From the NCBI RefSeq assembly GCF_965199065.1, contig NZ_CBDAQN010000002.1, forward strand, positions 48,213 to 112,212: 64,000 nt of DNA, written 5' to 3'. Every line of letters begins with the position of its first letter. The stretch's first letter is position 1. Shown here piece after piece: positions 15,859 through 61,084 of this stretch. The notes below the pieces were generated by a model. The model saw only the letters and a list, made by a program, of their open reading frames with translations, was not told the origin of the DNA and did not search any database. Source of the DNA: Acidisoma sp. GTDB lineage: Bacteria; Pseudomonadota; Alphaproteobacteria; Acetobacterales; Acetobacteraceae. A program made the position numbers and the translations under genes.

Positions 15859-15859
15859 T

Positions 15860-43975: not shown

Positions 43976-43993
43976 GCTGCTAATCCGTCGGCC

Positions 43994-44569: not shown

Positions 44570-45246
44570 CCAGGCTGGCCATTCTGATGCTCGCCTGTCT
44601 GGCGGTCGTGCTGGGCGGAGTCATTGCAATCGAAGCGAAGCCTCAGAACGTGAGGCGATCCGTTCCGCCGGCAGAGGATCTGGTGCGGGCCGGCCCGGTC
44701 GTTCCCCATGGCGGCGACGCGCGGCAGGTTCAGTCCTGGGTCGAGGCAATCCTCGCCCGGCCGCTCTTCGTGCCCTCGCGTCGGCCACCCGCGGCTGCTG
44801 CCGGCCCGGGCGACAGCGGCCCGGGCTTCCCGCGGCTCACCGGCATCATCATCATGCCGCAGCAGCGCGAGGCCATTTTTGCGGCGCCCGGGAAGTCGCA
44901 GCCGATCGTGGTGAGCGCGGGCAGCCGCCTCAACGGCGTGCTGATCAAGTCGATCGATGCCGGCGCGATCGTCGTCGTCGATGCCGCGGGGGCTCGCATT
45001 ATCCGCCCGTCCTTCGCCGCCGGAACAGCCTCGGGCTCACTTGTCCCTACCGCTCCGCGCCCACTTTCCGTCACGGTCGACCAGCCGCCCGTGCCAACGC
45101 CGCACGGCACCTCGCCTTTTGCCTCCATCCCAGGACTTAGCGGCCGTCCGTTGGGTCTGGCGGCCCAGCCCGATGCCTCGCCGCCTCCGGGTGGGGGCGC
45201 GACCAACACTTTGCCATCTATTGCTTCTCCCGGAGTTTCGCCATGA
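44566..45246 (+). CDS. GspC/GspN-like (TM plus HR/PilP-like domain, Pro-rich tail)
   Basis: In-frame TTG 44566 overlaps the gspM stop and gives MTRLAILMLACLAVVLGGV. The segment LTGIIIMPQQREAIFAAPGKSQPIVVSAGSRLNGVLIKSIDAGAIVVVD resembles the secretin-binding HR domain. Confidence 0.5.
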   Translation: MTRLAILMLACLAVVLGGVIAIEAKPQNVRRSVPPAEDLVRAGPVVPHGGDARQVQSWVEAILARPLFVPSRRPPAAAAGPGDSGPGFPRLTGIIIMPQQREAIFAAPGKSQPIVVSAGSRLNGVLIKSIDAGAIVVVDAAGARIIRPSFAAGTASGSLVPTAPRPLSVTVDQPPVPTPHGTSPFASIPGLSGRPLGLAAQPDASPPPGGGATNTLPSIASPGVSP

Positions 45247-47585
45247 AGCGTCTGTTTCCCTTGGCCCTCGCACTGGCCGTAGCGGGAACGGGTGCGGGTT
45301 GCGCGCCGACCGAAGGTCCGCCGCGGGCGCTCGCGCCGCAACTTGTGCCCGATACCAATCATCCGGATTATCGCGTCAGCGGGCCGATCGGCAGTCCGAA
45401 AGCGCTGCAGCAGCCGTTGTTATCGTACGGTTCCTCGGGCACGGTCTCGCTTCCCGCACAGCAAGGCGCGGGCGCCGGGGATGTCTCGCTCGATTTCGCG
45501 GACACCGACATCCGCGAGGTCGTCGCGCAGATCCTCGGCTCGATCCTGAAGGTCAACTACACCATCGACCCGGCCGTCCACGGCACGGCGACGCTGCATA
45601 CGGTGACGCCGCTGGCGCGCTCGCAGCTGCTGCCGACCCTGGAGGCCCTGCTGTCCGAAACCGGCGCTACCCTCGTCGATACCGACGGTCTCTACCGGGT
45701 GCTTCCCGCCGCGGCCCCGGGAAGCGGGAGCGCGAGCAGTGCCGGCCTTGCGAGCGGAGGCGGAACGTCAGGCGCCCAGCTTGTGCCTCTCCGCTACGTC
45801 TCGGCGACCGACCTCGCCAAGGTGTTGCAGCCTTTCGCAGGACAGTCGGCACGGATCGCCGTCGACCCCGGTAGCAACAGTCTCGTCATCGCCGGCGATC
45901 CGGATGCGCGGGACGCGCTCGTGGCCCTCGCGCAGGCCTTCGACACGAACCTCCTGGCCGGACAATCCTACGCGCTGCTCCCATCGCCACAGGGCGGCGC
46001 GGCCGACTTCGCGACCGAGTTGCAGACGGCTTTCCGTGCTCAGGGTGGGGGGCTGACGAACCTGGTGCGCGTGGTGCCGATGGAACGTGCCGGGGCGGTG
46101 CTCGTCATCGCCTCCCAGCCTGAATACATCGACGCGGCCCGGCGCGTGTACGATCTGCTCGAGCGGAAGCAACGCGCGACCGTGCGTAGCTGGAACGTGT
46201 ACTACCTCAAGGATGCGAAGGCGGAGGATGCGGCCTACCTGCTCCAGGAGGCCTTCACCCCGGACAACGTGACCGCGACCCCGAGCAGCACCACGACGAG
46301 CCAGCAGAGCGGCACGTCCGCCACCGGGGGCGCCGGCACCCCCGGCATCGGCACCGGAACGAGTGCCGGCGCGGGCGCAGGGGGCAGCAGCCAGACCGCC
46401 GTCGGTGGGGGCATCGGCACCGGCACCGCCATCAACGGCACGTCCGGCGGCATATTGGGCGGCGGCAACTCGGAGCCGGCGGCAACCGGCGGTTCGTCCT
46501 CGGGGCAGAGCGCCGCGCCGAGCCAGACCGCGGCCAATCCTCTTCTGGGCGGTCTAAGCGCCAGCGGCGGCGGCGCGGGTGGCGCCAGCGACGCCGACGC
46601 CCTCCGCATCATCCCGGACGACCACAACAACTCGGTGATGATCTACGCGACGCAGGACGAGGAAGAGCGCATCGACGCCATGCTGCGCAAGATCGATATC
46701 CTGCCGCTGCAGGTGCGTATCGACGCGACCATCGCCGAGGTCACGCTCAACAGTGCGCTGCAATACGGCACGCAATTCTTCTTCAGGTCCGGGGGCATTA
46801 ACGGCATTCTGAACAACACGGCCGCCGCGACCCCCTTGGGCACGCCAAGCTCCACTGTCTTGTCAACGGCTTTCCCCGGGTTCGTCCTCAGCGGCAACGG
46901 GGCCGGCGGCGCGCCGATCGCGCTGCAGGCATTGCAGGCGGTGACGACGGTGAAGGTGCTGTCCTCACCGGAGCTGATGGTGCTGGACGGAGAGACTGCC
47001 CGGCTGCAGGTGGGCCAGCTGGTGCCATACCTCGCGTCGAGTTCGCAAAGCACCGTGGCCAACTCGGCGGTCATCAACAACATCAACTATCAGCCGACGG
47101 GCGTCATCATGAGCGTGACGCCCCGGATCAGCGAGGGCGGCCGTGTCACGCTCGACATCTCACAGCAGGTGAGCGCAGTCGACACCTCGGTCAGCACGTC
47201 GACCACCGGCATCTCGTCGCCAACCTTCTCGGAGCAGGACGTCTCCTCGCGCGTGACGGTGCAGGATGGGCAGACGGTCGGCTTGGCGGGGCTGATTACC
47301 GATAATCTCACCAAGACGAACTCCGGCATTCCGTTTCTGAAGGACATCCCGCTGATCGGCCTGCTCGCAGGCACGCAGAACAACACTCGCACGCGGGACG
47401 AGCTGCTCATCCTCATCACGCCGCACGTGCAGTACGATGAGAACGACGCGCGCGCGCTGACGGCGGATCTGCAGTCGCAGCTGCAGGACGCGGCCACTGT
47501 TCCGGGTGAACTGAACAGCCTGCAATCACCCGGGTCGGATGATCCGAATTCGGTCGTGCGCCGGCAACTCCGGCTGGATCAGTAA
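45243..47585 (+). CDS. gspD: type II secretion secretin, with lipobox-like signal and a long G/S/T/A-rich insert
   Basis: N0-like VSLDFADTDIREVVAQILGSILKVNYTIDP. Secretin core ..VLSSPELMVLDGETARLQVGQLVPY..GIPFLKDIPLIGLL..ELLILITPHV. Signal MKRLFPLALALAVAGTGAGC. Confidence 0.95.
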   Translation: MKRLFPLALALAVAGTGAGCAPTEGPPRALAPQLVPDTNHPDYRVSGPIGSPKALQQPLLSYGSSGTVSLPAQQGAGAGDVSLDFADTDIREVVAQILGSILKVNYTIDPAVHGTATLHTVTPLARSQLLPTLEALLSETGATLVDTDGLYRVLPAAAPGSGSASSAGLASGGGTSGAQLVPLRYVSATDLAKVLQPFAGQSARIAVDPGSNSLVIAGDPDARDALVALAQAFDTNLLAGQSYALLPSPQGGAADFATELQTAFRAQGGGLTNLVRVVPMERAGAVLVIASQPEYIDAARRVYDLLERKQRATVRSWNVYYLKDAKAEDAAYLLQEAFTPDNVTATPSSTTTSQQSGTSATGGAGTPGIGTGTSAGAGAGGSSQTAVGGGIGTGTAINGTSGGILGGGNSEPAATGGSSSGQSAAPSQTAANPLLGGLSASGGGAGGASDADALRIIPDDHNNSVMIYATQDEEERIDAMLRKIDILPLQVRIDATIAEVTLNSALQYGTQFFFRSGGINGILNNTAAATPLGTPSSTVLSTAFPGFVLSGNGAGGAPIALQALQAVTTVKVLSSPELMVLDGETARLQVGQLVPYLASSSQSTVANSAVINNINYQPTGVIMSVTPRISEGGRVTLDISQQVSAVDTSVSTSTTGISSPTFSEQDVSSRVTVQDGQTVGLAGLITDNLTKTNSGIPFLKDIPLIGLLAGTQNNTRTRDELLILITPHVQYDENDARALTADLQSQLQDAATVPGELNSLQSPGSDDPNSVVRRQLRLDQ

Positions 47586-47590
47586 TACTG

Positions 47591-48394
47591 ATGCGGCTGC
47601 CTCGCCGCCTGGAGCATCCGCGCGGTTTTGCGCTCCTGATCGTCTTGTGGTCGATGGTGCTGCTGTCGCTGTTGTTCGCGCGGCTCGTCTCCGCCGGACG
47701 AAGCGAAGCGGAGATCGCGTTCAACCTGCGCGCGGCGGCGCAAAGGCAAGCTCAGGCCGACGGGCTTCTCTATAGTGTCATCTTCAGCCTGCTCGGCCCC
47801 GGCCGACATTGGCCGGCGGATGGAGCCGCACATCGCATTCGGCTTCCCGCGGCGGTCGCAAGCGTCTCCATCGAGAACCTGGACGGCCTCATCAATCCGA
47901 ACACCGCGTCGCCGGCCCTGCTTTATGCGCTGCTCTCGCGAGTGGGGGCTGACGCGACAACGGCTCGCAGCGTGTCGCAGGCGATGGCGGACTGGCGGTC
48001 GCCGGATGCGCAGGGTGTCTTTGAAGCGCCACAGTATCTGAGCGCGGGCCTGTCCTACACGCCTGCGGGATCGCCGTTCCAGAGCATCGGCGAACTCGGG
48101 CTCGTTCTTGGGATGACGCCGGAACTTCTCGCCAAGCTGGCGCCGCATCTATCGCTGTATAATGGTGACAACCCAAACCCGGATGATGCGGATCCGGTCG
48201 TCCGCCACGCACTGCGTGACACTGGGACGGTCGGAACATCCGGAGCCTCGCACCCACTACGGGTCGTCGCTGTCGACATCGTCATTTCCGGGGCGGGCGG
48301 CACCGAGGCGTCGCGACAAGCCGACGTGCAACTGCAAAGCTCCTCATCACCCACAGGTTTTCAAATTTTAACCTGGGAGAGCGGAGGGGCCTAG
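47591..48394 (+). CDS. gspK: minor pseudopilin GspK-like (short)
   Basis: RGFALLIVLWSMVLLSLLF (GspK-type, no Phe+1 methylation motif) and ..LINPNTASPALLYALL.. (helix-hairpin-helix-like). Confidence 0.7.
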   Translation: MRLPRRLEHPRGFALLIVLWSMVLLSLLFARLVSAGRSEAEIAFNLRAAAQRQAQADGLLYSVIFSLLGPGRHWPADGAAHRIRLPAAVASVSIENLDGLINPNTASPALLYALLSRVGADATTARSVSQAMADWRSPDAQGVFEAPQYLSAGLSYTPAGSPFQSIGELGLVLGMTPELLAKLAPHLSLYNGDNPNPDDADPVVRHALRDTGTVGTSGASHPLRVVAVDIVISGAGGTEASRQADVQLQSSSSPTGFQILTWESGGA

Positions 48395-48573: not shown

Positions 48574-49464
48574 ATGTCCGAGTTAATTTCCGGGGTCGAT
48601 GACGCGCTTCGATCCAACCGGCGTAACCTGTTGAAGACCGTAGGTCTAGGTGTCGCGGGAACTGCTGCTCTTGCCGCGACCGGCGTCGCGAGCTTGGGTT
48701 TCGGATCGACGCCGGCCATGGCACAAACCGATACTGATATCGAAGTGTTTAACTTCGCTCTCAATCTCGAATATCTCGAAGCCGAATTCTATCTTCGCGC
48801 CGTCACGGGAACAGGCCTGCCCGCAAGCCTGACCGGAGGCGCCGCAACGGTCACGGGTGGCTCTCTTGTTCCGTTTCAGAACACCGCCATCGCTTATCTC
48901 GCGCAGAAGATTGCGGTCGATGAACTGGCCCACGTTACCTTCATCCGCACCGTCCTCGGCGCGATGGCGGTTCCTGAGCCAAACCTCGACCTGTCGACCA
49001 GCTTCACGACGTTGGCCATCGCGGCAGGTCTCATTGCACCTGGCCAGACCTTCAACCCGTTTGCAAGCGAGACGAACTTCCTTCTTGGCGCATACATCTT
49101 CGAGGATGTGGGCGTGACGGCGTATGGTGGCGCTGCCGCATCCCTGTCGGCGGCGGTGCTTCCCTACGCCGCCAGCATTTTGGCCGTCGAAGGCTATCAT
49201 GCTGGTGGTATCCGGACACGTCTGTCGGAGATCGGTGGTTCGGCGGCGACAGATTTGATTTCTGCGCTGCGCCAGAAGCTATCGGGCGTGGGTGACAACG
49301 GCTGCAACTACGAAAGCAACCCGGCGAACTTCACGAACGTCGACAGCAATGGGCAAAGCTATCGCCGCACGCCGGCTCAGGTTCTGAGCATCGTTTACGG
49401 TGGCGGCACATCGAGTGGCCTGTTCTTTCCGAATGGCATGAACGGCGCCATCACGGTCGCCTGA
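48574..49464 (+). CDS. Tat-signal ferritin-like (Ferritin_2 / desiccation-related PCC13-62-like) protein, paralogue 1
   Basis: NRRNLLKTVGLGVAGTAALAA...AMAQ (twin-arginine signal). Di-iron-type motifs NLEYLEAEFY, VDELAHV, FEDVGV, VEGYHAG. Confidence 0.8.
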   Translation: MSELISGVDDALRSNRRNLLKTVGLGVAGTAALAATGVASLGFGSTPAMAQTDTDIEVFNFALNLEYLEAEFYLRAVTGTGLPASLTGGAATVTGGSLVPFQNTAIAYLAQKIAVDELAHVTFIRTVLGAMAVPEPNLDLSTSFTTLAIAAGLIAPGQTFNPFASETNFLLGAYIFEDVGVTAYGGAAASLSAAVLPYAASILAVEGYHAGGIRTRLSEIGGSAATDLISALRQKLSGVGDNGCNYESNPANFTNVDSNGQSYRRTPAQVLSIVYGGGTSSGLFFPNGMNGAITVA

Positions 49465-49516: not shown

Positions 49517-49942
49517 TCAGTTGCAGATCATGTTGTCGCCGGTTGCGGTGCCATTGGGTCCGGTCGAGCAGAGGTCGTAGTCGTGTCCGGCGCGGTCTGA
49601 CGGATCACGATAGACATATGGATGGTTCCAGGGATCGACGGGCACCTGACCCGATTGAACGTAGGGACCGTTCCAGTTGCTGACGCCGGCGGGGGTCTGA
49701 ACCAGGGCTTCCAGCCCCTGATCCGTGGACGGATAGCTCCCGACATCCAGCTTGTACATGTCGAGAACCGAACCCAATCGTGCGATCGACTGATGCGCGA
49801 TCGAGACGCGTGCGCCTCCCAGTTGACGCAGCACGGCAGGTGCCACCAAGCCGATCAGCAGGCCCAGGATCACGATGACGACCAGAATTTCGAGAAGCGT
49901 GAAACCGGCCTGAGTGTCTTCGCCGGCGACACTAACCCTCAT
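49517..49942 (-). CDS. gspG: major pseudopilin
   Basis: G|FTLLEILVVIVILGLLIGLVAPAV..., then ..LDMYKLDVGSYPSTDQGLEALV..GPY...VPVDPWNHPYVY (classic GspG). Start is ambiguous: ATG 49942 or 49960, with the ORF open to 50074. Confidence 0.9.
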   Translation of the reverse strand: MRVSVAGEDTQAGFTLLEILVVIVILGLLIGLVAPAVLRQLGGARVSIAHQSIARLGSVLDMYKLDVGSYPSTDQGLEALVQTPAGVSNWNGPYVQSGQVPVDPWNHPYVYRDPSDRAGHDYDLCSTGPNGTATGDNMICN

Positions 49943-50075
49943 AATTGCAGCTTGCCTCATTCGCAGGGAGGCGCGAAGAGTTTTCGGTCGCGTCATCCAA
50001 GGTGCTGGCATCGTGACTTCGTTCCTTAACTGAGGCGCATTTCTGTACGGGACCATCGTCACGGGCGACGCCAAG

Positions 50076-51083
50076 TTAGCGAGGTTGCGCCGCGATATCG
50101 ATATGGTCGCTCATCCGCGATCGGTAGATGCGCATGACGGCGTCAATATCCGTGCCGGTTTCGCTCAGGCTCCCGTCGGGCTCCACCACGCCCAAAACAT
50201 AGCCGAGCGAGATGAGCCAGCTCAGATAGTCTTCGCCGGAAATATGCGAGATGCCCGGGATCATGCCTGGGCTGAACTCGCTGATGATGAAGGGCCGGCA
50301 TCGCCGTATCGTCGCCTCCGCGCCAAGCAGCGCGTTGTACTCAGCACCTTCGACGTCGACCTTGATGAGGTCCACTGTCGTCCAGGCATCAAGAAGCGAG
50401 TCGAGCCTGAGGCAGGACACCGATTCCGCTGCCAGCAACTGGCCAAGCTCGTCGGGCGGCGCCGACGTCGTCCCGTTTGAAAAGGAGGTGTTCAGGATCA
50501 GAATCCCGGTCTCACGCCCGGCCGCGCTCTGCGCGACTGTTACGTTGTCAAAGCCGTTGGCTCTGCGACTTGCTTCGAGTAGCCGCACGTTGCGCGGATT
50601 GGGTTCGACCGCGAGAACATGCCCCTGCGCCCCGACAAGGGTGGCGGCAAGCATGGTGAAATAGCCTATGTTCGCACCGATATCGACGACGCTCATGCCG
50701 GGTTGCAGTCTCGACCGGAACAAGCGCGTCACGTCGGGTTCATAATTGTCGTCGCGAACAGGCTTGCCGACGGCGGCGTCATTCTGGTTGGAGTAGATGC
50801 GGAAACCTTGAACCTCGGTTGAGACGATGTCCTCGCCCGGATCGCGGTTCAGAAATCCGCGGCGTTGGAATTCGAGGCTGGTGACATAGCTCGAGACAAC
50901 CTGACCAAGGGGCTCCCCCACGCGCGAGCTGTGGCCGCGCCACTCCTCCGGATTAGGCATCCGTCCCAGGATCAACCGGAAGCAGCCCAGGATGTCAGCC
51001 TCGCTTGCCGTATCCTCGAATGTTGTGGTCCAAGGCTCGCGTATCTCAGGAATAGGGCGCGTCCTGGCCCATGGCAGTCGCAT
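50076..51083 (-). CDS. FkbM-family methyltransferase with DUF4214-like N-terminal domain
   Basis: VVDIGANIGYFTMLAA..VLAVEPNP..LIKVDVEGAEYNAL (FkbM/Methyltransf_21 pattern). N-terminus ILGCFRLILGRMPNPEEW...SLEF. Confidence 0.8.
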   Translation of the reverse strand: MRLPWARTRPIPEIREPWTTTFEDTASEADILGCFRLILGRMPNPEEWRGHSSRVGEPLGQVVSSYVTSLEFQRRGFLNRDPGEDIVSTEVQGFRIYSNQNDAAVGKPVRDDNYEPDVTRLFRSRLQPGMSVVDIGANIGYFTMLAATLVGAQGHVLAVEPNPRNVRLLEASRRANGFDNVTVAQSAAGRETGILILNTSFSNGTTSAPPDELGQLLAAESVSCLRLDSLLDAWTTVDLIKVDVEGAEYNALLGAEATIRRCRPFIISEFSPGMIPGISHISGEDYLSWLISLGYVLGVVEPDGSLSETGTDIDAVMRIYRSRMSDHIDIAAQPR

Positions 51084-51272
51084 CGGTCACCACCGCTAAA
51101 AGGGCTCGCTACCCGTCTTTGGGGCGGAGTGGTAATGCGGGCGCTGCACGATGTCCAGCCTGCTGGGCGCGCAAACAACCAGCACTATCCGCCCGTGAGG
51201 CCAAATAGTCTGCCAATCATGGCAGTGCTGCCGGGGCTTGCTCCAGGATCTTGAAGGAGGCAAACTTACACT

Positions 51273-54200
51273 TTGGGTTCGCTCGACTGCGATGCCCGCG
51301 GGAGCCCGACTGTGACGTTCGTGTCTTACGCCCAGAATTTCGAAGATGTGCTGCTGTGGCGCGCGCTCCGGGGGGTCGAGAACGGCTTCTACATCGATGT
51401 GGGCGCCGGGCATCCAGATATCGATTCGGTTTCTCGCGCCTTCTACGACCGCGGCTGGCACGGGATCAATATCGAGCCGACCGTTGAATTCAGCCGACGT
51501 CTCGCGGCCGCCCGTCCACGCGACATCAATCTGCAGCTGGTTCTGGGGGAGCATCCCGGCCGGGCCACGTTGTTCGTTGTTGATGGCACGGGCCTTTCGA
51601 CGATGGTGCCCGCAGGGGTCGATGCAATCCGAGAGGCCGGCAAGGAAAGCCACCGGGTCGAAGTCGCCATGGATACGTTGGCGAATCTGTGCCGCGAGCA
51701 CGCTCCTGAGTCGATCCATTTTCTCAAGGTGGATGTGGAAGGCGCCGAACGCGCTGTGCTGGCCGGCGCCGACTTCATGTCATTCCGGCCATGGATCGTC
51801 GTGGTTGAGGCGACAGCGCCGATGTCCAGCGTGATGACGCATGATACGTGGGAGTTCATGCTGCTCGAGGCAGGGTATCGCTTTGTCTGGTTCGATGGTC
51901 TCAACCGGTTCTACCTCTCTTCGGAGAGGCATGACGCGCTCGCTCACGCGTTCCAGGCGCCGGTGAATGTCTTCGACGACTTTATTCGTGCAAGCGACAC
52001 CGAGTGGGCGCGGCGCATTCAGGCGGCCGAAAACCACGCCTCGGACCGGGTCGTGAAACTGCTTGAGCGTGCGATCACGGCCGAGGTGCGGGCGGATCAT
52101 GAGTCGCTGTCGGCCGCGCATGCCCGGGTTCGGATCGACGAGACGTGGCGCGAAGCCCAGCAGCTACGCGCCGCTTTGCAGGATGAAAGGGCGCAGCGGC
52201 TGGCCGCCGAGGCGGAGGCAGAGGCCCTCACACGGCGCGCCGAGGCAGCCGAAAGCAATGCCGTTGGGCAGGCAACGCACGCAAAAGCCGAAACCATGCG
52301 CGCCCGTTACGAGCAGCAACGTTCCGCGATCAACGAGCAGCTTCGACGGGAGGCGATGGCCGCCTTCGAAGCCATCCATCGCAGCACCTCCTGGCGCATA
52401 ACGGCGCCGCTCCGTCGCCTGCGGTCGCGGCGAAACGCGGCGGGACCGGTGATCACACAACCGCCGCTGCCGGAGCCTCCGGCTGAGCTGGCCATTGCGC
52501 GTGAAGAACGCTCGATCTTTGCGAGTTCGGGTTTGATGGCTTCCGGGCGCGAGCGCCGGCCGGCGCCGCCGCGGACCAAGGTCCATCAGTATCATTCGGG
52601 TGCCGCTACCGGCGATGCGATCACCAACAGCATGCTGCTGACCCGCCAGCGGCTACGTGATCTTGGATACGAGAGCGAGATCTTCGTGAGCTTCCGCGAT
52701 CCGTCCCTCGCGCATGAGCTTCGTCTGGCGGACGATCTGCCGCGTCATGATCGTTATGTATTGATTGTCCGGCACTCGATGGGCTTCGATGCATTCGACG
52801 CGGTGGCGTCGGTTCCGGCGCCCAAGATTCTGCTGTATCACAATATCACGCCGCCTGATCTGCTGCAGGGCGACGCCTTCATGCAGCGATACGCAATCCT
52901 GGGCCGGGAGCAGCTCAAGAAATGGCGCTCCGTGGTCGGCGGGTCCCTTGCCGATAGCGAATACAACGCCATCGAGCTTCGTGCTCACGGGTTTTACCCG
53001 GTGCAGGTCTGCAATACGTTGTTCGATGCCGATGCGCTTCTCGCCCGCGCCGCCTCCACCCTAAAGGTGAAAGAGGCCGACTGTTTCACCATCCTTTTCG
53101 TCGGCCGCGTCGTGCGCTCAAAAGGGCAGGCGGAACTGGTGGACGTGTTCGCCGCATTCCGCAATCGGTATCGGAAGCCATGCCGACTAGTGCTCGTCGG
53201 CCGCCACGGCGATGCCAAGGACGACTACCTCATTTCGATCAAATCGCGCCTGAAAGAGTACGGGATAGCCAGCGACGTTGTGCTAACCGGGCCGGTGTCG
53301 GATGATGATCTGCATGCCTGGTACGCAAGTGCGGATGTCTACTTGTCGTTGAGCCGTCATGAAGGTTTTGGTGTGCCTCTGATCGAGGCCATGGCGCATG
53401 ATCTGCCGGTCCTCGCGCTTCCGGTCGCCGCTGTTCCCTACACCCTCGGCGGCACCGGCGGTCTGCTGGAGGACGATTCGATCAGTGGCGTTGTCGGCAG
53501 GCTTCTTGATCTTGCGGAGGGAGAGGAGCGCCAAGCGGGTTTGATCGCGCGGCAGCGTGCGGCGCTGGAGCGTGTACGTTGGGAGCGTCACAAAGACGCG
53601 TTCATGCAGACCTTGACGGCTGCCGGTGCGGCGCCATCGGTTCCCCGCGAGACGGAAGCCCTGTTGTTGTCGTCGATAACATTCACGGTGACCGGGCATG
53701 TCAGCGGCAGTTACAGCCTGGCGACGATCAACCGCACGCTGGCGCTCGCGCTGGACATCGCCCGGCCGGGCGATGTCCGCCTCGCACCGGTCGAGGGCAC
53801 GCCGACGACGACGATCAGCGGTTTACCCGGCCAGGACTTGACCAAGATCGAGGCGCTGGTTGCGCGGCCAAGGCCCATGACTGCCCCGCACGTCGTGATC
53901 AGCCAGCATTATCCGGTGTATGTTCCGTCTGATCCCGGGGACCTCTCGCTCGCCTACTTCTTCTGGGAAGAGTCGCTTATCCCTCTCAAGACGATTGAAG
54001 GTCTGAACAAGAATTTCCGGGCAATACTTGCGCCGACGGTTTTTGTGGCGAAGACGCTGATCGATTCCGGACTCTCGCTTCCGGTTCGCGTTGTCGGCTA
54101 TGCGCCTCGGCTGGAGGGGTTCGAGGCCCTGGCGGCTACGCGCAAGGCAGCGGCCGGCCACCCTTTTACCTTTCTGCATGTCTCATCCGGCTTCCCCCGC

Positions 54201-55979
54201 AAAGGCATCGATGTCCTTCTCGAGGCCTACGCAAAGGCTTTTCGCAGCTCGGACGACGTTCGCCTCGTCATCAAGGTGTTCCCCAATCCGCATAACACGG
54301 TGGCGCAGCAGCTGGCCGGCTTGCAGACGGCGGACAGTAATGCGCCTGCAATCACCCTGATCGATGACGACATCTCCGAAACGGAATTGGTGGACCTCTA
54401 CCGAAACGCCGACGCAGTTGTGCTTCCAACCCGCGGCGAAGGGTTCAATATCCCGGCGGCCGAGGCGATGGCGGCCGGAATCCCTCTCATCGTCACCGGG
54501 CACGGCGGACACATGGACTTCTGCGACCGATCCGTCCGGTTGGTAGATTACAGCTTCGCGCCTTCCGGGAGCCACCTCGCGGCGAGTGGCTCGCTCTGGG
54601 CAGACCCGGATGCGGACGACCTGACGAACGCCTTGCGCGAGGCTGTTTTGGACCGGTTGCCGAGGCCGAGTCCGGCCCAACTACCAGATGCGAGAACCTT
54701 CGCGGAAAGCATCATCGCGACCTCGGCAGAGCTCCTGTTGCTTCCGCCACCGCCGCCGCTGCGTATCGGCTGGGTGTCGAGCTGGGGCGTGCGCTGCGGG
54801 ATCGCGGAATACTCCCGTCATCTGCTGGATGCGATGCTCGCCTCGGACGAACCGGGCGCGGAGGGCGGCTCACCTCCAGAGGTCACGGTTCTTTGCGACA
54901 CGCGGACGTCCACCGAGGCACCCGAGGCGCTGGATGCCACCATCCGGCCCTCCTGGGACCTTTTTCTTCTCGACGGGGCCAAGCCACTCATTCGCGCGGT
55001 AGCCGAGACCGATCCTGATGTGCTGGTGATCCAGCATCAACCTGGACTGATCGTCTGGAACTCGCTGGCGGAATTACTCGCCTCGGAAACCGTCCGGCAG
55101 CGGCCGGTCGTACTGGTTCTCCACACCACGCAACGCATCCTCGACATCACCGAGGAAGATCGCACGGCGATCATAGCCGCGCTGAGGGGTGTTGCCCGCG
55201 TCGTCGTTCACACGGTCAATGACGTGAACCGGCTGAGGAAGCTCGGACTGGTCGCGAACGTGGTGATGATACCGCAAGGGGCCGTGCCTCTGGGCGAACC
55301 GGTGGTGCTTTCCATCGCGCCAGCCGAAGAGCGTCGTTTCATCATCGGATGCTACGGCTTCTTCTTCAGCGAGAAGGGGATTTTGCAACTTATCGAGGCG
55401 TTCGGGCAACTGCGCGCGCGTGATGGTCGCCTCCGGCTACGCCTCGTCAATGCCCAGTACGGCACGGTGGAGTCCGCAGCGGAGATTGCCCGTTGCCGCG
55501 CCGCGGCCGAGGCTGCCGGTCTTGCCGACGCGGTAGAATGGCACACGAATTTTCTGCCCGATCAGGAGTCGCGCCGGCTTCTCGGCGAGTGCGATCTCAT
55601 CGCACTTCCCTATCAGACGTCGAAAGAGGGATCGAGCGCGGCGTTGCGGATGGCGATGTCCGCCGGTGTGCCTGTGGCGGTCACGCCGTTGCCGCTGTTC
55701 GATGAGGCTGAAGCCGCTGTGTTTCGCTTCAGCGGCACTGGGAGCGCCGATATAGCAGATGGGATTGCCCACCTCCTCAATCGGCCTGAGGAGCGGCAGG
55801 CAATCCGGGCGGAGATGAAATCCTGGATGACGAGCCGCGAATGGCCCCGCGTCGCCACGCGCTTTGGAGGCATGCTCCAGGGGCTGCGTTCCAATTGGAA
55901 AAGCGGCAATGTCATTCAGCCGTGCGCCAGTGATAACTCCACAGTGCCTGGGCCCGCGGCTGCCGCGACGGTAGACTGA
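51273..55979 (+). CDS. 1568-aa fusion protein: FkbM methyltransferase, coiled coil, three GT4 glycosyltransferase domains
   Basis: aa 15-215 SYAQNFEDVLLWRAL..YIDVGAG..LKVDVEGAE. aa 245-375 Ala/Glu/Arg heptad-rich. SWRITAPLRRL. GT4 motifs SRHEGFGVPLIEAMAHDLPVL, PTRGEGFNIPAAEAMAAGIPLI, and a weaker third (PYQTSKEGSSAALRMAMSAGVPV). Confidence 0.8.
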   Translation: MGSLDCDARGSPTVTFVSYAQNFEDVLLWRALRGVENGFYIDVGAGHPDIDSVSRAFYDRGWHGINIEPTVEFSRRLAAARPRDINLQLVLGEHPGRATLFVVDGTGLSTMVPAGVDAIREAGKESHRVEVAMDTLANLCREHAPESIHFLKVDVEGAERAVLAGADFMSFRPWIVVVEATAPMSSVMTHDTWEFMLLEAGYRFVWFDGLNRFYLSSERHDALAHAFQAPVNVFDDFIRASDTEWARRIQAAENHASDRVVKLLERAITAEVRADHESLSAAHARVRIDETWREAQQLRAALQDERAQRLAAEAEAEALTRRAEAAESNAVGQATHAKAETMRARYEQQRSAINEQLRREAMAAFEAIHRSTSWRITAPLRRLRSRRNAAGPVITQPPLPEPPAELAIAREERSIFASSGLMASGRERRPAPPRTKVHQYHSGAATGDAITNSMLLTRQRLRDLGYESEIFVSFRDPSLAHELRLADDLPRHDRYVLIVRHSMGFDAFDAVASVPAPKILLYHNITPPDLLQGDAFMQRYAILGREQLKKWRSVVGGSLADSEYNAIELRAHGFYPVQVCNTLFDADALLARAASTLKVKEADCFTILFVGRVVRSKGQAELVDVFAAFRNRYRKPCRLVLVGRHGDAKDDYLISIKSRLKEYGIASDVVLTGPVSDDDLHAWYASADVYLSLSRHEGFGVPLIEAMAHDLPVLALPVAAVPYTLGGTGGLLEDDSISGVVGRLLDLAEGEERQAGLIARQRAALERVRWERHKDAFMQTLTAAGAAPSVPRETEALLLSSITFTVTGHVSGSYSLATINRTLALALDIARPGDVRLAPVEGTPTTTISGLPGQDLTKIEALVARPRPMTAPHVVISQHYPVYVPSDPGDLSLAYFFWEESLIPLKTIEGLNKNFRAILAPTVFVAKTLIDSGLSLPVRVVGYAPRLEGFEALAATRKAAAGHPFTFLHVSSGFPRKGIDVLLEAYAKAFRSSDDVRLVIKVFPNPHNTVAQQLAGLQTADSNAPAITLIDDDISETELVDLYRNADAVVLPTRGEGFNIPAAEAMAAGIPLIVTGHGGHMDFCDRSVRLVDYSFAPSGSHLAASGSLWADPDADDLTNALREAVLDRLPRPSPAQLPDARTFAESIIATSAELLLLPPPPPLRIGWVSSWGVRCGIAEYSRHLLDAMLASDEPGAEGGSPPEVTVLCDTRTSTEAPEALDATIRPSWDLFLLDGAKPLIRAVAETDPDVLVIQHQPGLIVWNSLAELLASETVRQRPVVLVLHTTQRILDITEEDRTAIIAALRGVARVVVHTVNDVNRLRKLGLVANVVMIPQGAVPLGEPVVLSIAPAEERRFIIGCYGFFFSEKGILQLIEAFGQLRARDGRLRLRLVNAQYGTVESAAEIARCRAAAEAAGLADAVEWHTNFLPDQESRRLLGECDLIALPYQTSKEGSSAALRMAMSAGVPVAVTPLPLFDEAEAAVFRFSGTGSADIADGIAHLLNRPEERQAIRAEMKSWMTSREWPRVATRFGGMLQGLRSNWKSGNVIQPCASDNSTVPGPAAAATVD

Positions 55980-56201: not shown

Positions 56202-57107
56202 ATGAGTCAACTTTTTGGAAACAGCCACATGAACAATATCGCTAGTAGCGAAACCGCAAGCCGAAGGTTTATTGGAAAGATTGGCGCAGGTGCCGTCGCT
56301 CTCTGCGCGTTGGCTGGTCTTGCGAGCAAGCCGGCAAAAGCTCAGGCAGACGCTGACGTAAATGTTCTCAACTTTGCTCTCAACCTCGAATACCTCGAAG
56401 CCGAGTACTATTTGCGCGCCGTGACTGGAGCGGGCCTTTCTGCGGCTTACGGAGGAGCAGGCACAGCGGTCGTTCCGACTTCGACCCTGGTCCCCTTCAA
56501 GACGTCAGCAGTAGCTTATTGGGCGCAGCGGATTGCCAATGACGAACTCGCCCATGTGAACTTTCTCCGGATCGCGCTTGGTGCCGCGGCCATTCCCGAG
56601 CCAGTGATCGATCTTGAGACGAGCTTCACCACGCTTGCCGTAGCCGCGGGCCTCATCACGGCGGGCCAAACCTTCAACCCGTTCGCGAGCGAACTCGACT
56701 TCCTCATTGGAGCCTACATCTTCGAAGATGTCGGCGTCACGGCCTATGCCGGAGCCGCCGCCCTTCTGACCGAGCCCAACAATATTGCATACAGCGCCAG
56801 CATCCTCGCGATCGAAGCCGAACATGCCGGCTGCATCCGGGGCTACCTTGCCTCGATTGGCGGCGGAGCGGCTACAGACGCTATTTCCGCGCTGCGTCAG
56901 AAGCTTTCCGGCGTGCAGGACAACGGGACCGATCTCAGCGGGAGCGGTGGCAACCCGTTTTCGTTCGCAAACGACGACTACAACGGCCAGGTGTTCCGCA
57001 GAACGCCGCAGCAGGTGCTTAACATCGTCTACGGTGCACCTGGAACGGGCGTCACGTCCGGTCTGTTCTTCCCCAATGGCGTCAACGGTGCCGTTGCCTC
57101 GACTTAA
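56202..57107 (+). CDS. Tat-signal ferritin-like protein, paralogue 2
   Basis: SRRFIGKIGAGAVALCALAGL..AKAQ signal. NLEYLEAEYY, NDELAHV, FEDVGV, IEAEHAG. Confidence 0.8.
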   Translation: MSQLFGNSHMNNIASSETASRRFIGKIGAGAVALCALAGLASKPAKAQADADVNVLNFALNLEYLEAEYYLRAVTGAGLSAAYGGAGTAVVPTSTLVPFKTSAVAYWAQRIANDELAHVNFLRIALGAAAIPEPVIDLETSFTTLAVAAGLITAGQTFNPFASELDFLIGAYIFEDVGVTAYAGAAALLTEPNNIAYSASILAIEAEHAGCIRGYLASIGGGAATDAISALRQKLSGVQDNGTDLSGSGGNPFSFANDDYNGQVFRRTPQQVLNIVYGAPGTGVTSGLFFPNGVNGAVAST

Positions 57108-57151
57108 GCAAGCCGCCAGCCGATAGCACTAACATCATCGAGGACGCTTCA

Positions 57152-58075
57152 ATGCCTGACAACACAATCAAGACCGTACTCCAGAAGAGTATTGACCGCC
57201 GCCGCTTCATGAGGCGCTCCGGGCTTGGCCTGACCGGATTGGCAACTGCAGTCTCAGGTGCGTTTCTATCCGCCAAGCCCGCGCGCGCTCAGGCCCTGAC
57301 CGACGCGGACATCTTCAACTTTGCTTTGAATTTCGAGTATCTCGGGTCGCAGTATTATCTTGCGGCGCTTGGCACTTCCTTGCCTGCGAGCCTGACAGGT
57401 ACCGGCGCAGGTGCGGTGATCCTGCCGACCCCGACTGCCGTTCCGTTCCAGAACAAGGCCGTTGCTTACTTCGCTCAGCAGCTCGCTGTTGACGAACTCG
57501 CGCACGTCACCGTTATCCGGGAGGCTCTGGCGGCTGAGGGCGCCACTCCGATCCCGCAACCGGTTATCAACCTCAACACGAGCTGGACTTCGCTCGCGGC
57601 GGCGGCAGGATTGATCACTCCGGGCCAGACCTTCAATCCCTTCGCTAGCGAAACCGACTTCCTGCTGGGTGCCTACGTTCTGGAGGATGTTTGCGTCACC
57701 GCACTTTGTGGCGCGGCGCCGCTAATCTCAAGCAAGGTGAACTTGGCCTATGCCGCGTCCATTCTCGGCGTGGAGGGCTACCAGGTCGGCCTCATCAGAT
57801 CGCGTCTATCGGCGATCGGCGCGGATGTCGCTACGGATGCCATCTCCGCTCTTCGGTCGAGCCTCTCGAACACGGTCGTCAACATGGGCGTCAATGATGT
57901 AGGCACAAATGCCTATGGCAACCCCTTCAACTTCACCAATGCTGACAGCAACGCCCAGGCGTTTCGTCGCACCCCCCAGGAAGTTCTGGCGATTGCATAC
58001 GGTGGGGCACCGGCGGGTGGCGGATTCTTTCCGAATGGCGTAAACGGCGCCATCACAACCACGGCTTCCGCCTGA
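57152..58075 (+). CDS. Tat-signal ferritin-like protein, paralogue 3 (altered metal-site motifs)
   Basis: DRRRFMRRSGLGLTGLAT..ARAQ signal. NFEYLGSQYY, VDELAHV, LEDVCV, VEGYQVG (Q where paralogues 1 and 2 have H). Confidence 0.8.
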   Translation: MPDNTIKTVLQKSIDRRRFMRRSGLGLTGLATAVSGAFLSAKPARAQALTDADIFNFALNFEYLGSQYYLAALGTSLPASLTGTGAGAVILPTPTAVPFQNKAVAYFAQQLAVDELAHVTVIREALAAEGATPIPQPVINLNTSWTSLAAAAGLITPGQTFNPFASETDFLLGAYVLEDVCVTALCGAAPLISSKVNLAYAASILGVEGYQVGLIRSRLSAIGADVATDAISALRSSLSNTVVNMGVNDVGTNAYGNPFNFTNADSNAQAFRRTPQEVLAIAYGGAPAGGGFFPNGVNGAITTTASA

Positions 58076-58170: not shown

Positions 58171-58584
58171 TCAATCGTGATGATGGACCCGTACGAACAG
58201 CGCCTCGGCCGCCTGGATGACCTGCGACTGGTAGGAGAGGTTGAGCTGGCGGGTGTGAGAGTGGTAGTCGCCGATTGCCCGCATGAGATCGCCTCGATCC
58301 TCGGCGAGGTAGGTTTTGAGGATCGCCCCGGCTGCGGCGATATTATAGCAGGGCGCGTTGATGAGACGGGCCCGGACCTGACTGGCCGGTTCTCGCGTGT
58401 ATGCCACGAGCGGCCCAATCCAACGCGTGTTGATCTGCATAACCCCTAGGTCCTGCGATCCGTCGGCGTCGTTGCTAATGGTCCCTGGCCGGCCGCCTTC
58501 TATCGCCTGGATAGACGGCAGCACCCGAGGCGGGAGGTGGTAGATCGACGCGACGAGCGCCATGCAAGCGAGGAACGGTATCAC
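58171..58584 (-). CDS. small lytic transglycosylase (SLT domain) protein
   Basis: 137 aa; LPSIQAIEGG (catalytic Glu region) and DLGVMQINTRWI, as in VirB1/IagB-type specialised transglycosylases. Confidence 0.7.
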   Translation of the reverse strand: MIPFLACMALVASIYHLPPRVLPSIQAIEGGRPGTISNDADGSQDLGVMQINTRWIGPLVAYTREPASQVRARLINAPCYNIAAAGAILKTYLAEDRGDLMRAIGDYHSHTRQLNLSYQSQVIQAAEALFVRVHHHD

Positions 58585-59026
58585 GACGGCAGCATCCTGG
58601 ATGATACGGCTGACAGCTTCTACTGGCTAAACGCCGCGCCGGGAAGCCGTGAACAAAAACAAACCGCCGAAGCAGGCGAGAGGCAGCCTCGACGGCGTTG
58701 GGTCTGCACAAACGTAAGCCGCAGCCGATTACGCGAAACGGCAGCCGCTTACAACACAGGGCCGCCGCCCGGACGATAGATGACAAAGCACCCTGCGACG
58801 GCTCTATGTCAACACTCCCATATATCCGAACCGAAATCGAAATGGATTGACGTTGCGACGGAACGTTACAAATCGTCGCGTGAAAAGCGCTAGCCGTCAG
58901 CTTCTGCAGAATTGTCAGCGATTGCAGAAACTGCTTTCACCGGTATTCGGTCGATGCTCCAAACAAATTGCGTTGAGCATTCATGAAACCGTCATCGCAT
59001 TGCTACAGACGCGCGGCGTGCGATGA

Positions 59027-61084
59027 ATGAAAACACCTCCAACCCTGGCCGTGCTCGAAAGGTCGAGATGGCTCTGGCAACAATTGTATTTGTGGAGGGT
59101 TCCTCTCTTGCAGAAATCAACGTGGGCGCGAACGCGCCTGCAATTCCGGTCGGCGATGCTCGCCGCGACCGCCGCTAGCCTGATCGCAGGCCCGGTGGTT
59201 CCGGCCTTCGCCCAATCCGCCGCCGCGACCGGTGGCGTCGACAATATGGTTGGATCGCCGCCTGCGAGCACTCCGATCCAGCACATCGTCGTCATCATCG
59301 GCGAGAACCGCACGTTCGACCATGTGTTCGCAACGTATCAGCCGCCGCACGGGGAAAAGGTGTTCAACCTCCTCTCCGAGGGCATTATCAACGCGAACGG
59401 CACGCCCGGACCGAACTACCGCAACGCCGGACAGTTCTCGGCCCAGCAGCCGGCCAATTACAGCACGCACCCCGGCGGCAAGGTTCTCTACACGAACCTT
59501 CCGGCGCCCGGCACGGACGGCGCGCCGACCGCGTCGTCAGACAGCAACCCGCCTCCCTTCGCGAGCGTTGCGGCGGTCGCGGCTGTTGAGTCACAGATCA
59601 ACGACGGCCTGCCCAGCGCCGATTACAATCTGCTGACGACGGGCGCGACCGGCCTCGCCTCGGATGTCGCGGACACGCGCATCACGAACGCGAACTCGCT
59701 CCCGGATGGCCCTTATCAGATCACCGGCCCGACCCTGCCGTACGACTCCTATACAGCGAGCCCGGTTCATCGCTTCTACGAGATGTGGCAACAAACTGAT
59801 TGCGCCAAAGGCCATATCACAGCCGCCAATCCTTCCGGCTGCTTGAACGACCTCTTTCCCTGGACCGAAGTCACCGAGGGCGCCGGCACCAACGGCAAGC
59901 CGCAACCCGCCGGGTTCAATAATCTGACAACGGGCGAAGGCTCGGCGTCGATGGGCTTCTTCAACATGGCGCAGGGGGACGCGGCAACGTTCAAGTCGCT
60001 CGCCGACCAGTACACGATCAGCGACAACTACCATCAGGCCATCATGGGCGGCACCGGCGCCAACCACATCGCGCTCGGGACCGGCCTCGCCATCTATTAC
60101 ACCGATGGTCAGGGCAACGTCGCGACGCCGCCCGCGGATGAAATCGAGAACCCCAACAGCCAATCCGGCACCAACAACTGGTGGGTGCAGGACGGCTACT
60201 CGGGCGGTTCATATAGCAATTGCTCGGACGACACGCAGCCGGGCGTGACGGCAGTCCGCACCTACCTCAAGTCTCTGCCGTCGAAGCCCGCCCTGAAGTG
60301 CAAGAAGGACGCCTACTACCTTCTCAACAACTACAACCCGGGCTACTTCGGGGACGGCACCGTCAACACCTCGACCTTCACCGTGCCGCCTTCGCCGGTG
60401 CACACGATCGCGGATGTCCTGAACGCGCACAACATCTCCTGGAAATACTACGGCGCCGGATGGGACAACTACGTGGCCAACCCGTCGAGCGACCTCGGCG
60501 GCCTCTATTGCAACATCTGCAATCCCTTCCTGTATGAAACCAACATCATGACGAGCGCGACGCAGCGCTCGACGCATCTGAAGGACGTGCCGGATCTGGT
60601 CTCCGACATCAGCACCGGCAATCTGCCGGCGGTCTCGATCATCAAGCCCGATGGCCTGCTCGACGGACATCCGGCTTCGTCTAAGCTCGATCTCTTCGAA
60701 GCCTTCGCCAGCAACATCGTCTCCGAGATCCAGGCCAACCCCAAGCTGTGGGCGCATACCGCGATCCTCATCACCTTCGACGAGGGCGGTGGATACTGGG
60801 ACTCGGGCTACATCCAGCCGCTCGACTTCTTCGGCGACGGCACGCGTATCCCGGCGATTATGGTCTCGCCCTACTCCACCGGCGGCCATGTCACCCACGT
60901 CTACGCAGATCATGTCTCGTTCCTGAAGTTCATCGAGCGGAACTGGGGTCTCGAGGCGGTCTCCAAGAGCGGCCGTGACAACCTGCCTGACCCGATCGCC
61001 TACGCCAACAACCCGTATGCTCCGGTCAACAGCCCGGCCATCGGCGACCTGATGGATATGTTCAACTTTTACCAGAAGAACTGA
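59027..61084 (+). CDS. phosphoesterase-family protein (phospholipase C / AcpA acid phosphatase family), secreted
   Basis: IQHIVVIIGENRTFDHVFATY is the phosphoesterase-family N-terminal motif. Signal-like MLAATAASLIAGPVVPAFAQS; the true start is probably downstream of 59027 (e.g. ATG 59156). Confidence 0.75.
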   Translation: MKTPPTLAVLERSRWLWQQLYLWRVPLLQKSTWARTRLQFRSAMLAATAASLIAGPVVPAFAQSAAATGGVDNMVGSPPASTPIQHIVVIIGENRTFDHVFATYQPPHGEKVFNLLSEGIINANGTPGPNYRNAGQFSAQQPANYSTHPGGKVLYTNLPAPGTDGAPTASSDSNPPPFASVAAVAAVESQINDGLPSADYNLLTTGATGLASDVADTRITNANSLPDGPYQITGPTLPYDSYTASPVHRFYEMWQQTDCAKGHITAANPSGCLNDLFPWTEVTEGAGTNGKPQPAGFNNLTTGEGSASMGFFNMAQGDAATFKSLADQYTISDNYHQAIMGGTGANHIALGTGLAIYYTDGQGNVATPPADEIENPNSQSGTNNWWVQDGYSGGSYSNCSDDTQPGVTAVRTYLKSLPSKPALKCKKDAYYLLNNYNPGYFGDGTVNTSTFTVPPSPVHTIADVLNAHNISWKYYGAGWDNYVANPSSDLGGLYCNICNPFLYETNIMTSATQRSTHLKDVPDLVSDISTGNLPAVSIIKPDGLLDGHPASSKLDLFEAFASNIVSEIQANPKLWAHTAILITFDEGGGYWDSGYIQPLDFFGDGTRIPAIMVSPYSTGGHVTHVYADHVSFLKFIERNWGLEAVSKSGRDNLPDPIAYANNPYAPVNSPAIGDLMDMFNFYQKN

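Follow-up and report, generated by a model that had tools for sequence, protein, structure and literature searches.

A predicted single-chain glycan polymerase and chain-terminating methyltransferase embedded in a type II secretion locus of Acidisoma

We analysed a 64,000-nucleotide stretch of DNA from Acidisoma sp. (Acetobacteraceae; contig NZ_CBDAQN010000002.1, positions 48,213 to 112,212), here called the window, and in particular one of its genes, which joins an FkbM-type methyltransferase, a long helix and three glycosyltransferase family 4 (GT4) modules in one reading frame. The gene lies in a type II secretion locus beside genes for Ferritin_2 proteins (PF13668). We regard it as probable that its product is a cytoplasmic, single-chain glycan assembly enzyme of the WbdD/WbdA type that has been uncoupled from the transporter genes wzm and wzt. 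The gene and its parts, in window coordinates and with the evidence in brackets, are as follows.

51312 to 55979, + strand: fusion gene encoding FkbM methyltransferase, long helix and three GT4 modules (open reading frame, Pfam, orthologue alignment)
51312 to 51917, + strand: FkbM (Methyltransf_21) S-adenosylmethionine (SAM)-dependent methyltransferase, predicted chain-capping O-methyltransferase (Pfam/NCBIfam, alignment, model)
52002 to 52382, + strand: single helix of ~127 residues rich in Ala, Arg, Glu and Gln, amino acids 244–370, ~190 Å if straight; candidate ruler (model, alignment)
52383 to 52418, + strand: junction motif STSWRITAPLRR closing the helix (alignment; present in split FkbM-coil proteins and in an O8-family WbdD-like protein)
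52419 to 52574, + strand: Pro-rich linker, predicted disordered (model), standing where split proteins have a basic amphipathic tail of ~100 amino acids
52575 to 53642, + strand: GT4 module 1, intact EX7E motif, E697/E705 (Pfam, alignment)
53670 to 54722, + strand: GT4 module 2, intact EX7E motif, E1056/E1064 (Pfam, alignment)
54750 to 55892, + strand: GT4 module 3, only the first Glu (E1452) kept (Pfam, alignment)

The frame is open on the + strand from 51273 to 55979, with 1568 codons and zero internal stops. The TTG at 51273, the mechanical start of the open reading frame (ORF), gives 1568 amino acids, the length stated in a preliminary description of this DNA; the GTG at 51312, preceded at 7 nt by GGGAG, gives 1555. 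We set the start at this GTG, probably the true one, because the alignment of 25 full-length orthologues begins M/V-TFVSYAQNFEDV and a database protein 99% identical to the fusion protein (P0001) is 1555 amino acids long. More than 100 database proteins of ~1450–1650 amino acids carry the same full architecture, which together with the open frame rules out the frameshift or assembly artefact that the preliminary description had envisaged as a possible refutation. The methyltransferase–coil–triple-GT4 fusion described there is therefore real, as judged from the intact ORF and the Pfam domains, and its domain coordinates are correct to within a few codons (Pfam, model). We looked for a signal peptide and a transmembrane segment in the fusion protein and found neither.

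Pfam places the methyltransferase domain at amino acids 42–204 (E = 1.7e-26). Its FkbM membership is clear, with scores of 93.9 bits for PF05050 (cut-off 22.7) and 60.9 for TIGR01444 (cut-off 37.7), and its SAM-binding motifs IDVGAGHPD (DVGA..P.D) and HFLKVDVEGAE (HFLKxDVEGxE) are invariant in the 25 orthologues. Structure prediction, one of the checks proposed at the outset, gave an AlphaFold2 model of amino acids 14–445, computed as a monomer, in which a class-I methyltransferase fold is followed by a single continuous helix at 244–370 (predicted local distance difference test score (pLDDT) 73–91) and then by disorder. A fold search with this N-terminal model returned only generic class-I methyltransferases at E ~1e-3 or weaker, with the exception of KijD1 (1.4e-4); among the weak matches to the FkbM domain was MeT1 of M. 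hassiacum, a methylmannose-polysaccharide methyltransferase. Pfam detected no kinase domain in the fusion protein, and a PDB sequence search using the whole-protein profile yielded generic GT4 structures only, with no close template.

Of the 130 residues counted in the helical segment, 32 are Ala, 19 Arg, 18 Glu and 9 Gln. The equivalent span varies from 71 to 147 amino acids in the 25 orthologues while both of its ends stay invariant. The junction motif that follows has the pattern STSWRxTAPLR, with S371, S373, W374, P379 and R381 invariant in the same orthologues, and falls in the disordered remainder of the model. The helix and its conserved end motif correspond to the ~130-residue Ala/Glu/Arg/Gln coil ending in SWRITAPLRRL that was originally noticed, and at 127 modelled residues the helix is predicted to form an extended coil separating a terminator from the membrane-proximal end. 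No C-terminal amphipathic membrane-binding helix follows it, as the Pro-rich linker runs directly into GT4 module 1; recruitment of the polymerase is replaced by covalent fusion.

Glycos_transf_1 is matched in three stretches of the C-terminal region (Pfam, E = 1e-52), with which NCBIfam agrees, and the EX7E glutamates of modules 1 and 2 are invariant across orthologues. The generic GT4 matches of module 1 include glycolipid synthases. A protein search of plasmid records identified an E. coli IncC plasmid holding an O8-family cluster in the order manC, manB, wzm, wzt, a gene for a 425-amino-acid methyltransferase, a gene for a 1213-amino-acid glycosyltransferase, GT1 and wbdC. The 1213-amino-acid protein, a WbdA of the O8 family, is collinear with amino acids 507–1525 of the fusion protein through all three modules (BLASTP, 30% identity over 1104 amino acids, E = 3e-124), and its third module likewise lacks the second Glu of EX7E. 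The third motif of the fusion protein, originally called weakened, does retain E1452 only, but this reflects inheritance from the WbdA(O8) lineage and not local decay. Thus both the tandem arrangement of the modules and the state of their EX7E motifs are those of WbdA(O8). The 425-amino-acid WbdD-like methyltransferase carries NSRSWRITQPLRWL at the end of its coil, sharing SWRITxPLR with the fusion protein. Glycosyltransferases encoded on Pseudomonas plasmids, close to wzm, also match amino acids 421–1528 at ~33% identity. The initial proposal of a fused terminator, coiled-coil ruler and multi-glycosyltransferase polymerase of the ATP-binding cassette (ABC) transporter-dependent type is backed by this homology to WbdA and WbdD-like proteins.

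A profile-based scan of species-representative genomes yielded 80 loci and identified homologous fusions and their neighbours, as had been suggested for a follow-up. All 12 full-length outgroup relatives (29–37% identity) have wzm and wzt immediately upstream; they come from Pseudoxanthomonas, Massilia, a Rhizobiaceae metagenome-assembled genome (MAG), Tolypothrix, Dyella, a beta-proteobacterial MAG, Rivihabitans, Limnohabitans, Thiothrix, Extensimonas, Synechococcus and Mesorhizobium. The end of wzt lies right upstream of the FkbM gene in 34 of 46 outgroup loci, at a gap of 0 to ~1200 nt that is mostly below 135 nt, and Pfam confirmed ABC2_membrane, and ABC_tran with Wzt_C, in the three outgroup loci scanned. 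Most of these relatives are split into an FkbM-coil protein of 430–500 amino acids and a triple-GT4 protein of ~1210–1230 amino acids, the former bearing SW[RKQ]x[TS]xP[LYV]R followed by a basic amphipathic tail of ~100 amino acids. Split pairs occur in Limnohabitans, Mesorhizobium, Pseudoxanthomonas, Dyella, Massilia and cyanobacteria, some with a second small FkbM gene, and two relatives (L041 and L044) are fused within a classical wzm–wzt context. Near the Mesorhizobium and Limnohabitans clusters, Pfam identified manB, manC, gmd and a gene resembling rmd. Together with the Gmd/Rmd neighbours described below, these genes are indirect hints that polymerisation may depend on GDP-mannose and proceed on an undecaprenyl diphosphate-linked primer. 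In two of the relatives, from Limnohabitans (L042, 10016–11398) and Synechococcus (L046, 10010–11305), the coil consists of near-perfect AEAKAQQ heptad repeats; this suggests that coil length could change by gain or loss of repeats, as would fit a spacer of freely variable length.

The nearest described systems are the WbdD–WbdA pairs of E. coli O8 and K. pneumoniae O5. The O5 WbdA has three glycosyltransferase modules, and WbdD adds a methyl cap to the chain and uses its coiled coil as a molecular ruler (PMC11231755). The fusion protein resembles these pairs in its collinear GT4 trio, whose third module lacks the second Glu, and in combining a methyltransferase terminator with an extended helix that ends in SWRITxPLR. 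It differs in being one chain, in having a terminator of FkbM type, unrelated in sequence to WbdD(O8), in lacking the amphipathic tail, and in that wzm, wzt, manB/C and wbdB/C are unlinked to its gene. K. pneumoniae O12 WbbB and O7 ORF6 place terminator, coil and polymerase in one chain (PMC11231755); compared by description, O7 ORF6 and the WbbB of O12 and R. terrigena share with the fusion protein an N-terminal terminator, a ruler coil and C-terminal polymerising glycosyltransferases. However, O7 ORF6 has a methyltransferase-kinase, a carbohydrate-binding module (CBM) and two GT2 modules, in WbbB the terminator is a beta-Kdo (3-deoxy-D-manno-oct-2-ulosonic acid) transferase, and both are encoded with wzm–wzt. 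The CPA TET operon of P. syringae (wzm, wzt, a wbdD-like O-methyltransferase and a wbdA-like glycosyltransferase) is an ABC pathway of the GDP-D-rhamnose/mannose type with a methyl terminator, and in some TET operons the methyltransferase and glycosyltransferase genes are fused (PMC7820976); there the genes remain in the transporter operon, and an association with a secretion system or Ferritin_2 is not reported. The split FkbM-coil and triple-GT4 pairs are homologous in both halves (29–37% identity), of the same FkbM type and with the same motif; unlike the window gene they mostly form two genes, carry the basic amphipathic tail on the first, always stand beside the transporter and often beside manB/manC/gmd/rmd. 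Since O12 WbbB, O7 ORF6 and the fused P. syringae TET genes have been described, the single-chain terminator/ruler/polymerase format is already known and is not a new design. The FkbM-type terminator is uncharacterised in that role.

The window protein belongs to a fused clade of 39 loci with at least 43% identity to it, mostly from Acetobacteraceae (Acidisoma, Roseomonas, Plastoroseomonas, Acidiphilium, Acidocella, Lichenicoccus, Lichenicola, Rhodovastum and Acidisphaera). Many of the bacteria that carry the gene live in association with lichens, peat or soil. Homologues of Wzm/Wzt or Kps proteins are found within 10 kb in none of the 39 loci (wzm/wzt judged at ≥40% identity), a contrast with the outgroup for which Fisher's test gives p = 6e-12, although the loci are phylogenetically non-independent and this value overstates the evidence. 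In the window itself, tblastn with Wzm, Wzt, KpsM, KpsT, KpsE, KpsD, KpsC and KpsS found nothing in the 64 kb, and Pfam scans of its sizeable ORFs found no initiating phosphoglycosyltransferase and no sugar-nucleotide genes. Thus wzm and wzt (with Wzt_C) are not encoded with the polymerase–terminator in the window or in the clade, and the early remarks that no exporter is linked and that no initiating transferase or sugar-nucleotide genes lie nearby agree with these searches.

The fusion gene stands in the window among the following features.

37493 to 48394: type II core, gspO (− strand), E, F, H, I/J-like, L(PilN)-like, M (subtype b), an unassigned ORF, D and K
48574 to 49464, + strand: third Ferritin_2 gene with a twin-arginine translocation (Tat) signal, between gspK and gspG (Pfam)
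49517 to 50074, − strand: gspG, major pseudopilin, adjoining the small FkbM gene; the listed start is probably too far upstream
50076 to 51083, − strand: second, stand-alone FkbM methyltransferase, 335 amino acids, divergent (TIGR01444, E = 3.4e-29; a copy in most orthologous loci)
51084 to 51311: intergenic region between the divergent genes, 228 nt when counted to the revised start
56202 to 58075, + strand: two tandem Tat-signal Ferritin_2 (PF13668) genes, 56202 to 57107 and 57152 to 58075, after a 222-nt gap from the fusion gene
58171 to 58584, − strand: small SLT-type lytic transglycosylase, which accompanies gspG at orthologous loci
59027 to 61084, + strand: phosphoesterase-family protein (phospholipase C (PLC)/acid phosphatase) with an N-terminal signal-like segment; probable secretion cargo

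The core set of a type II system, comprising GspO, E, F, H, I/J-like, L(PilN)-like, M_b, D, K and G, was recognised by Pfam and NCBIfam, GspD scoring 381 bits for TIGR02517 against a cut-off of 351. GspD (45243–47585, + strand) begins with a lipoprotein-type signal, LAVAGTGAGC, and would be a liposecretin; ahead of its secretin domain runs a low-complexity linker of ~100 residues (amino acids 340–450) rich in Gly, Ser and Thr. The Hxc system of P. aeruginosa is a dedicated type II system that secretes the LapA phosphatase through a liposecretin. The window's locus resembles Hxc in its lipobox secretin and its phosphatase-like neighbouring cargo genes, and we know of no glycan polymerase at the Hxc locus. 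PF13668 members of a tardigrade and of D. radiodurans are dinuclear-metal metabolite phosphatases tied to desiccation tolerance (PMC11616004). On the basis of these PF13668 phosphatases, the PLC/acid-phosphatase homologue and the lipobox secretin, the type II locus looks dedicated to phosphatase-type cargo.

The three Ferritin_2 paralogues of the window share a conserved C-terminal GLFFPNGxNG motif. Two of them keep the di-metal ligands (E, ExxH, E, ExxH), and in the third the His of the second ExxH is replaced by Gln. A model built from the three paralogues only had a mean pLDDT of 61, and a fold search with it matched ferritin-like bundles only, none of them significantly, and missed the tardigrade phosphatase structure; because of this, the family assignment rests on Pfam and on PMC11616004.

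One to three Ferritin_2 genes lie within 10 kb of the fusion gene in 28 of the 39 clade loci, and in 15 the adjacent gene, 75–350 nt from the fusion gene's 3′ end, is one of them. Interleaved with these are gspG with the SLT gene, gspD/K or gspE/F/O, in at least five different gene orders. The genetic linkage between Ferritin_2 proteins and the fusion gene is therefore real and conserved. It is compatible with a further reading, that the enzyme glycosylates Ferritin_2 proteins in the cytoplasm, after which Tat would export them folded and the type II system would release them as methyl-capped glycoproteins. The enzyme is cytoplasmic, all 31 neighbouring Ferritin_2 proteins have twin-arginine signals of the pathway that exports folded proteins, the gene adjacency is tight and conserved, and lipid-carrier and exporter genes are absent nearby. 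Every identifiable relative of the glycosyltransferase region, however, is a lipid-linked glycan polymerase beside wzm–wzt, the Ferritin_2 proteins have no obvious Ser/Thr-rich acceptor tract, and the membrane acyltransferases (Acyl_transf_3) that recur at clade loci fit a membrane-translocated glycan. To our knowledge a polysaccharide-bearing Tat substrate is without precedent, which also counts against this reading. In addition, Ferritin_2 relatives are widespread (Actinomycetota, Acidobacteriota, Verrucomicrobiota and others) with neither the enzyme nor a type II system, and six loci in Acetobacteraceae and other alphaproteobacteria (L172, L173, L182, L210, L234 and L237) combine the secretion system and Ferritin_2 without the fusion gene. 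Because of these loci and phyla, the enzyme cannot be an obligatory maturation factor for Ferritin_2 proteins, and the pairing of Ferritin_2 with secretion is the older association, to which the glycan enzyme was added as an accessory in a subset of genomes. We consider cytoplasmic glycosylation of Ferritin_2 very improbable. Three acceptors had been put forward initially: a lipid-linked glycan is most likely on the homologies described here, the ferritin-like proteins are unlikely to be direct acceptors, and the secretin linker is topologically implausible, since it is periplasmic and the enzyme has neither a signal peptide nor a transmembrane segment.

Other neighbours that recur in the clade are a second FkbM gene (most loci), Acyl_transf_3 (12 loci), Methyltransf_24 (9 loci) and Gmd/Rmd (4–6 loci). 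The second FkbM, Gmd/Rmd and Acyl_transf_3 genes point to a decorated polysaccharide that would be exported or translocated across the membrane. In Acidisoma the fusion gene is followed by a gene for a 1177-amino-acid GT2+GT4 protein, and two proteins at 69–71% identity, P0012 (2181 amino acids; L164, 10001–16546) and P0013 (2223 amino acids), are fused at their C termini to a homologue of it, so that five glycosyltransferase modules, methyltransferase and coil form one chain. In Plastoroseomonas the gene lies inside an ordinary multi-glycosyltransferase glycan cluster.

The lack of linked exporters can also be read as a sign that no ABC transporter ever exports the product, which would instead be an intracellular polymethylated polysaccharide or a glycolipid on a diacylglycerol-like membrane lipid, possibly in a phosphate-sparing remodelling of the membrane that is expressed together with the secreted phosphatases. 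Glycan exporters are consistently absent from the 39 loci, two methyltransferases are present, the FkbM domain weakly resembles M. hassiacum MeT1 in structure, module 1 has its generic matches to glycolipid synthases, and the cargo of the locus is phosphatase-like (PMC11616004). Yet these fold and family matches are generic and weak (E ~1e-3), modules collinear with those of WbdA, and a terminator of coiled-coil design, favour a long lipid-linked polymer made for export, and the Acyl_transf_3 neighbours suggest extracytoplasmic modification. Nor is there a Pho box above chance: the pattern CTGTCATN4CTGTCAT with up to three mismatches gave 4 matches against 3.2 expected. A product that stays inside the cell or on a diacylglycerol-like lipid thus seems to us most unlikely. 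A weak Pho-box-like site with three mismatches (58978–58995), which is not significant, lies 32 nt upstream of the phosphoesterase gene.

The small divergent gene was at first described as a DUF4214–FkbM methyltransferase; the FkbM assignment stands, whereas DUF4214 was not matched in Pfam at E ≤ 0.05. The control region shared by the two FkbM-containing genes, given as 189 nt (51084–51272), becomes 228 nt (51084–51311) with the GTG start. It contains a perfect palindrome, CTGCCA-ATCA-TGGCAG, at ~51208–51223, a possible regulator site, and a promoter and terminator scan of 48.3–59.1 kb found nothing above shuffled controls. As a correction to the early picture of the glycan genes, the window also holds a separate exopolysaccharide (EPS)-type set 44 kb away (1183–7445), made up as follows.

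1183 to 2406: GT4
2413 to 3591: Acyl_transf_3
4015 to 5325: AAA_16 ATPase
5334 to 7445: Wzz+GNVR co-polymerase

On the opposite strand, 7497–10706 encodes a 1069-amino-acid protein with a pair of CBM60 modules and a weak match to GH26. Further along are a cytochrome oxidase operon with COX3, COX1 and COX2 (13166–17014, − strand), a resistance-nodulation-division (RND) efflux system of MFP and an AcrB-like pump (17526–22014), and a second RND system with an AcrB-like pump, MFP and OEP (22573–28440) with a TetR regulator at 28505–29215.

Genes for RepA_C, a ParA-like ATPase and a ParB/SopB-HTH protein at 29955–34613 (− strand) form a plasmid-type replication and partition module, and the window probably belongs to a plasmid or chromid. 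A search of PLSDB found no near-identical plasmids; only ParA was matched, at ~71%. In Acidisoma sp. PAMC 29798 the block of secretion genes, Ferritin_2, gspG, SLT, FkbM, fusion gene and the gene for the 1177-amino-acid glycosyltransferase is located on a 204.5-kb repABC/Trb plasmid (L096, NZ_CP126995.1), which has a gene cluster for Kps-type capsule export at 2984–20108, ~20 kb away from the fusion gene. This cluster encodes an outer membrane polysaccharide export (OPX) protein, a KpsT-like ATPase, a KpsM-like permease, a KpsE-like protein and two KpsC/S-like proteins, together with a protein of the lipoteichoic acid (LTA)-synthase family, two GDP-mannose dehydratase-family genes and several glycosyltransferases. 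KpsM homologues are common in Acetobacteraceae, and at least four genomes with the fusion gene have one, on other contigs or, in Lichenicola, ~600 kb away. We rejected the Kps exporter as a universal partner, as it is near the gene on one Acidisoma plasmid only and ~600 kb off in Lichenicola. Candidate exporters may be an unlinked Wzm/Wzt, a KpsMT-type system or another transporter.

These replicons bear on the strongest rival explanation, inherited synteny, in which the type II/Ferritin_2 setting has no functional meaning and the gene encodes an ordinary O-antigen or capsule polymerase–terminator that landed there once or travels on plasmids and is served by an unlinked Wzm/Wzt or KpsMT exporter. 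Consistent with it are the plasmid-type replicons of the window and of PAMC 29798, the Kps-type cluster with Gmd/Rmd ~20 kb from the gene on the latter, the distant KpsM homologues, and loci with Ferritin_2 and the secretion system that have no fusion gene (L172, L173 and L182). Eleven clade loci have no Ferritin_2 nearby, two of which (L003 and L012) have less than 2.5 kb of 3′ flank; one clade locus is an orphan and one lies in an ordinary glycosyltransferase cluster. Against it, the linkage persists over at least five gene orders and orientations at 43–57% protein identity, with Ferritin_2 immediately adjacent in the 15 loci. In four loci (L016, L018, L032 and L166) the fusion gene is flanked by gspK and Ferritin_2, all on one strand and separated by short gaps, and in three (L033, L053 and L023) Ferritin_2 is adjacent even though secretion genes are absent within 10 kb. 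We regard synteny without function as unlikely, though it has to be taken seriously.

Several points weigh against a WbdD/WbdA-type assembly enzyme at this locus. The FkbM domain is unrelated to the WbdD methyltransferase beyond the general fold: it gave no significant alignment with the O8 WbdD-like methyltransferase, which belongs to a different class-I group. A literature search found no characterised FkbM-type terminator and no work combining FkbM, coiled coil and O-antigen, and the Asaia secretome paper contained nothing relevant. The heptad periodicity of the helix is weak and it was modelled as a monomer only. The basic amphipathic tail of the split homologues is missing after the motif, which leaves membrane attachment without an explanation. 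Finally, the window contains no wzm/wzt or Kps genes and, among its annotated ORFs, no initiating transferase, adaptor glycosyltransferase or ligase, so that the pathway assignment is incomplete.

Taking these points together with the homologies, we favour the single-chain assembly enzyme and propose that it works as follows. The enzyme would be cytoplasmic and membrane-peripheral, and of the ABC-transporter-dependent type. On the cytoplasmic side of the inner membrane, its three GT4 modules would build a linear glycan on a lipid-linked acceptor, the sugar probably being mannose or a 6-deoxyhexose derived from GDP-mannose. The ~190 Å helix, presumably oligomerising into a coiled coil, would hold the FkbM domain at its far end, where this domain would O-methylate the non-reducing end once the chain reaches it, stopping growth and setting the length. 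The divergent second FkbM enzyme may add a further methyl group. As the gene is uncoupled from wzm–wzt, export would have to rely on a transporter encoded elsewhere. The gene now lies within a type II locus, the likely cargo of which is the Tat-exported Ferritin_2 dinuclear-metal proteins and the PLC/acid-phosphatase homologue. From this arrangement we infer, and no more than infer, that glycan and secreted proteins may be co-expressed or may function jointly on the cell surface. A more far-reaching version, which we think rather unlikely, is that the methyl-capped glycan is the dedicated partner of this specialised type II system, for example a phosphate-free surface polymer that reaches the surface by a route other than Wzm/Wzt and retains or protects Ferritin_2 proteins under desiccation or phosphate stress. 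If that were true, selection would act on the glycan and the secreted enzymes together, as a single module.

What is truly new is that transporter linkage has been lost throughout the clade and that the gene is conserved in its place beside Tat-exported Ferritin_2 proteins and a type II system: a whole clade has split a transporter-coupled polymerase–terminator from wzm–wzt and kept its gene by these partners through many rearrangements. The putative FkbM terminator would add an uncharacterised type to the coiled-coil ruler paradigm, and as a natural WbdD–WbdA-like fusion the protein would be useful for testing helix length against glycan length. If the linkage is functional, it would tie surface glycan assembly in these bacteria to the secretion of poorly understood stress-related metalloproteins.

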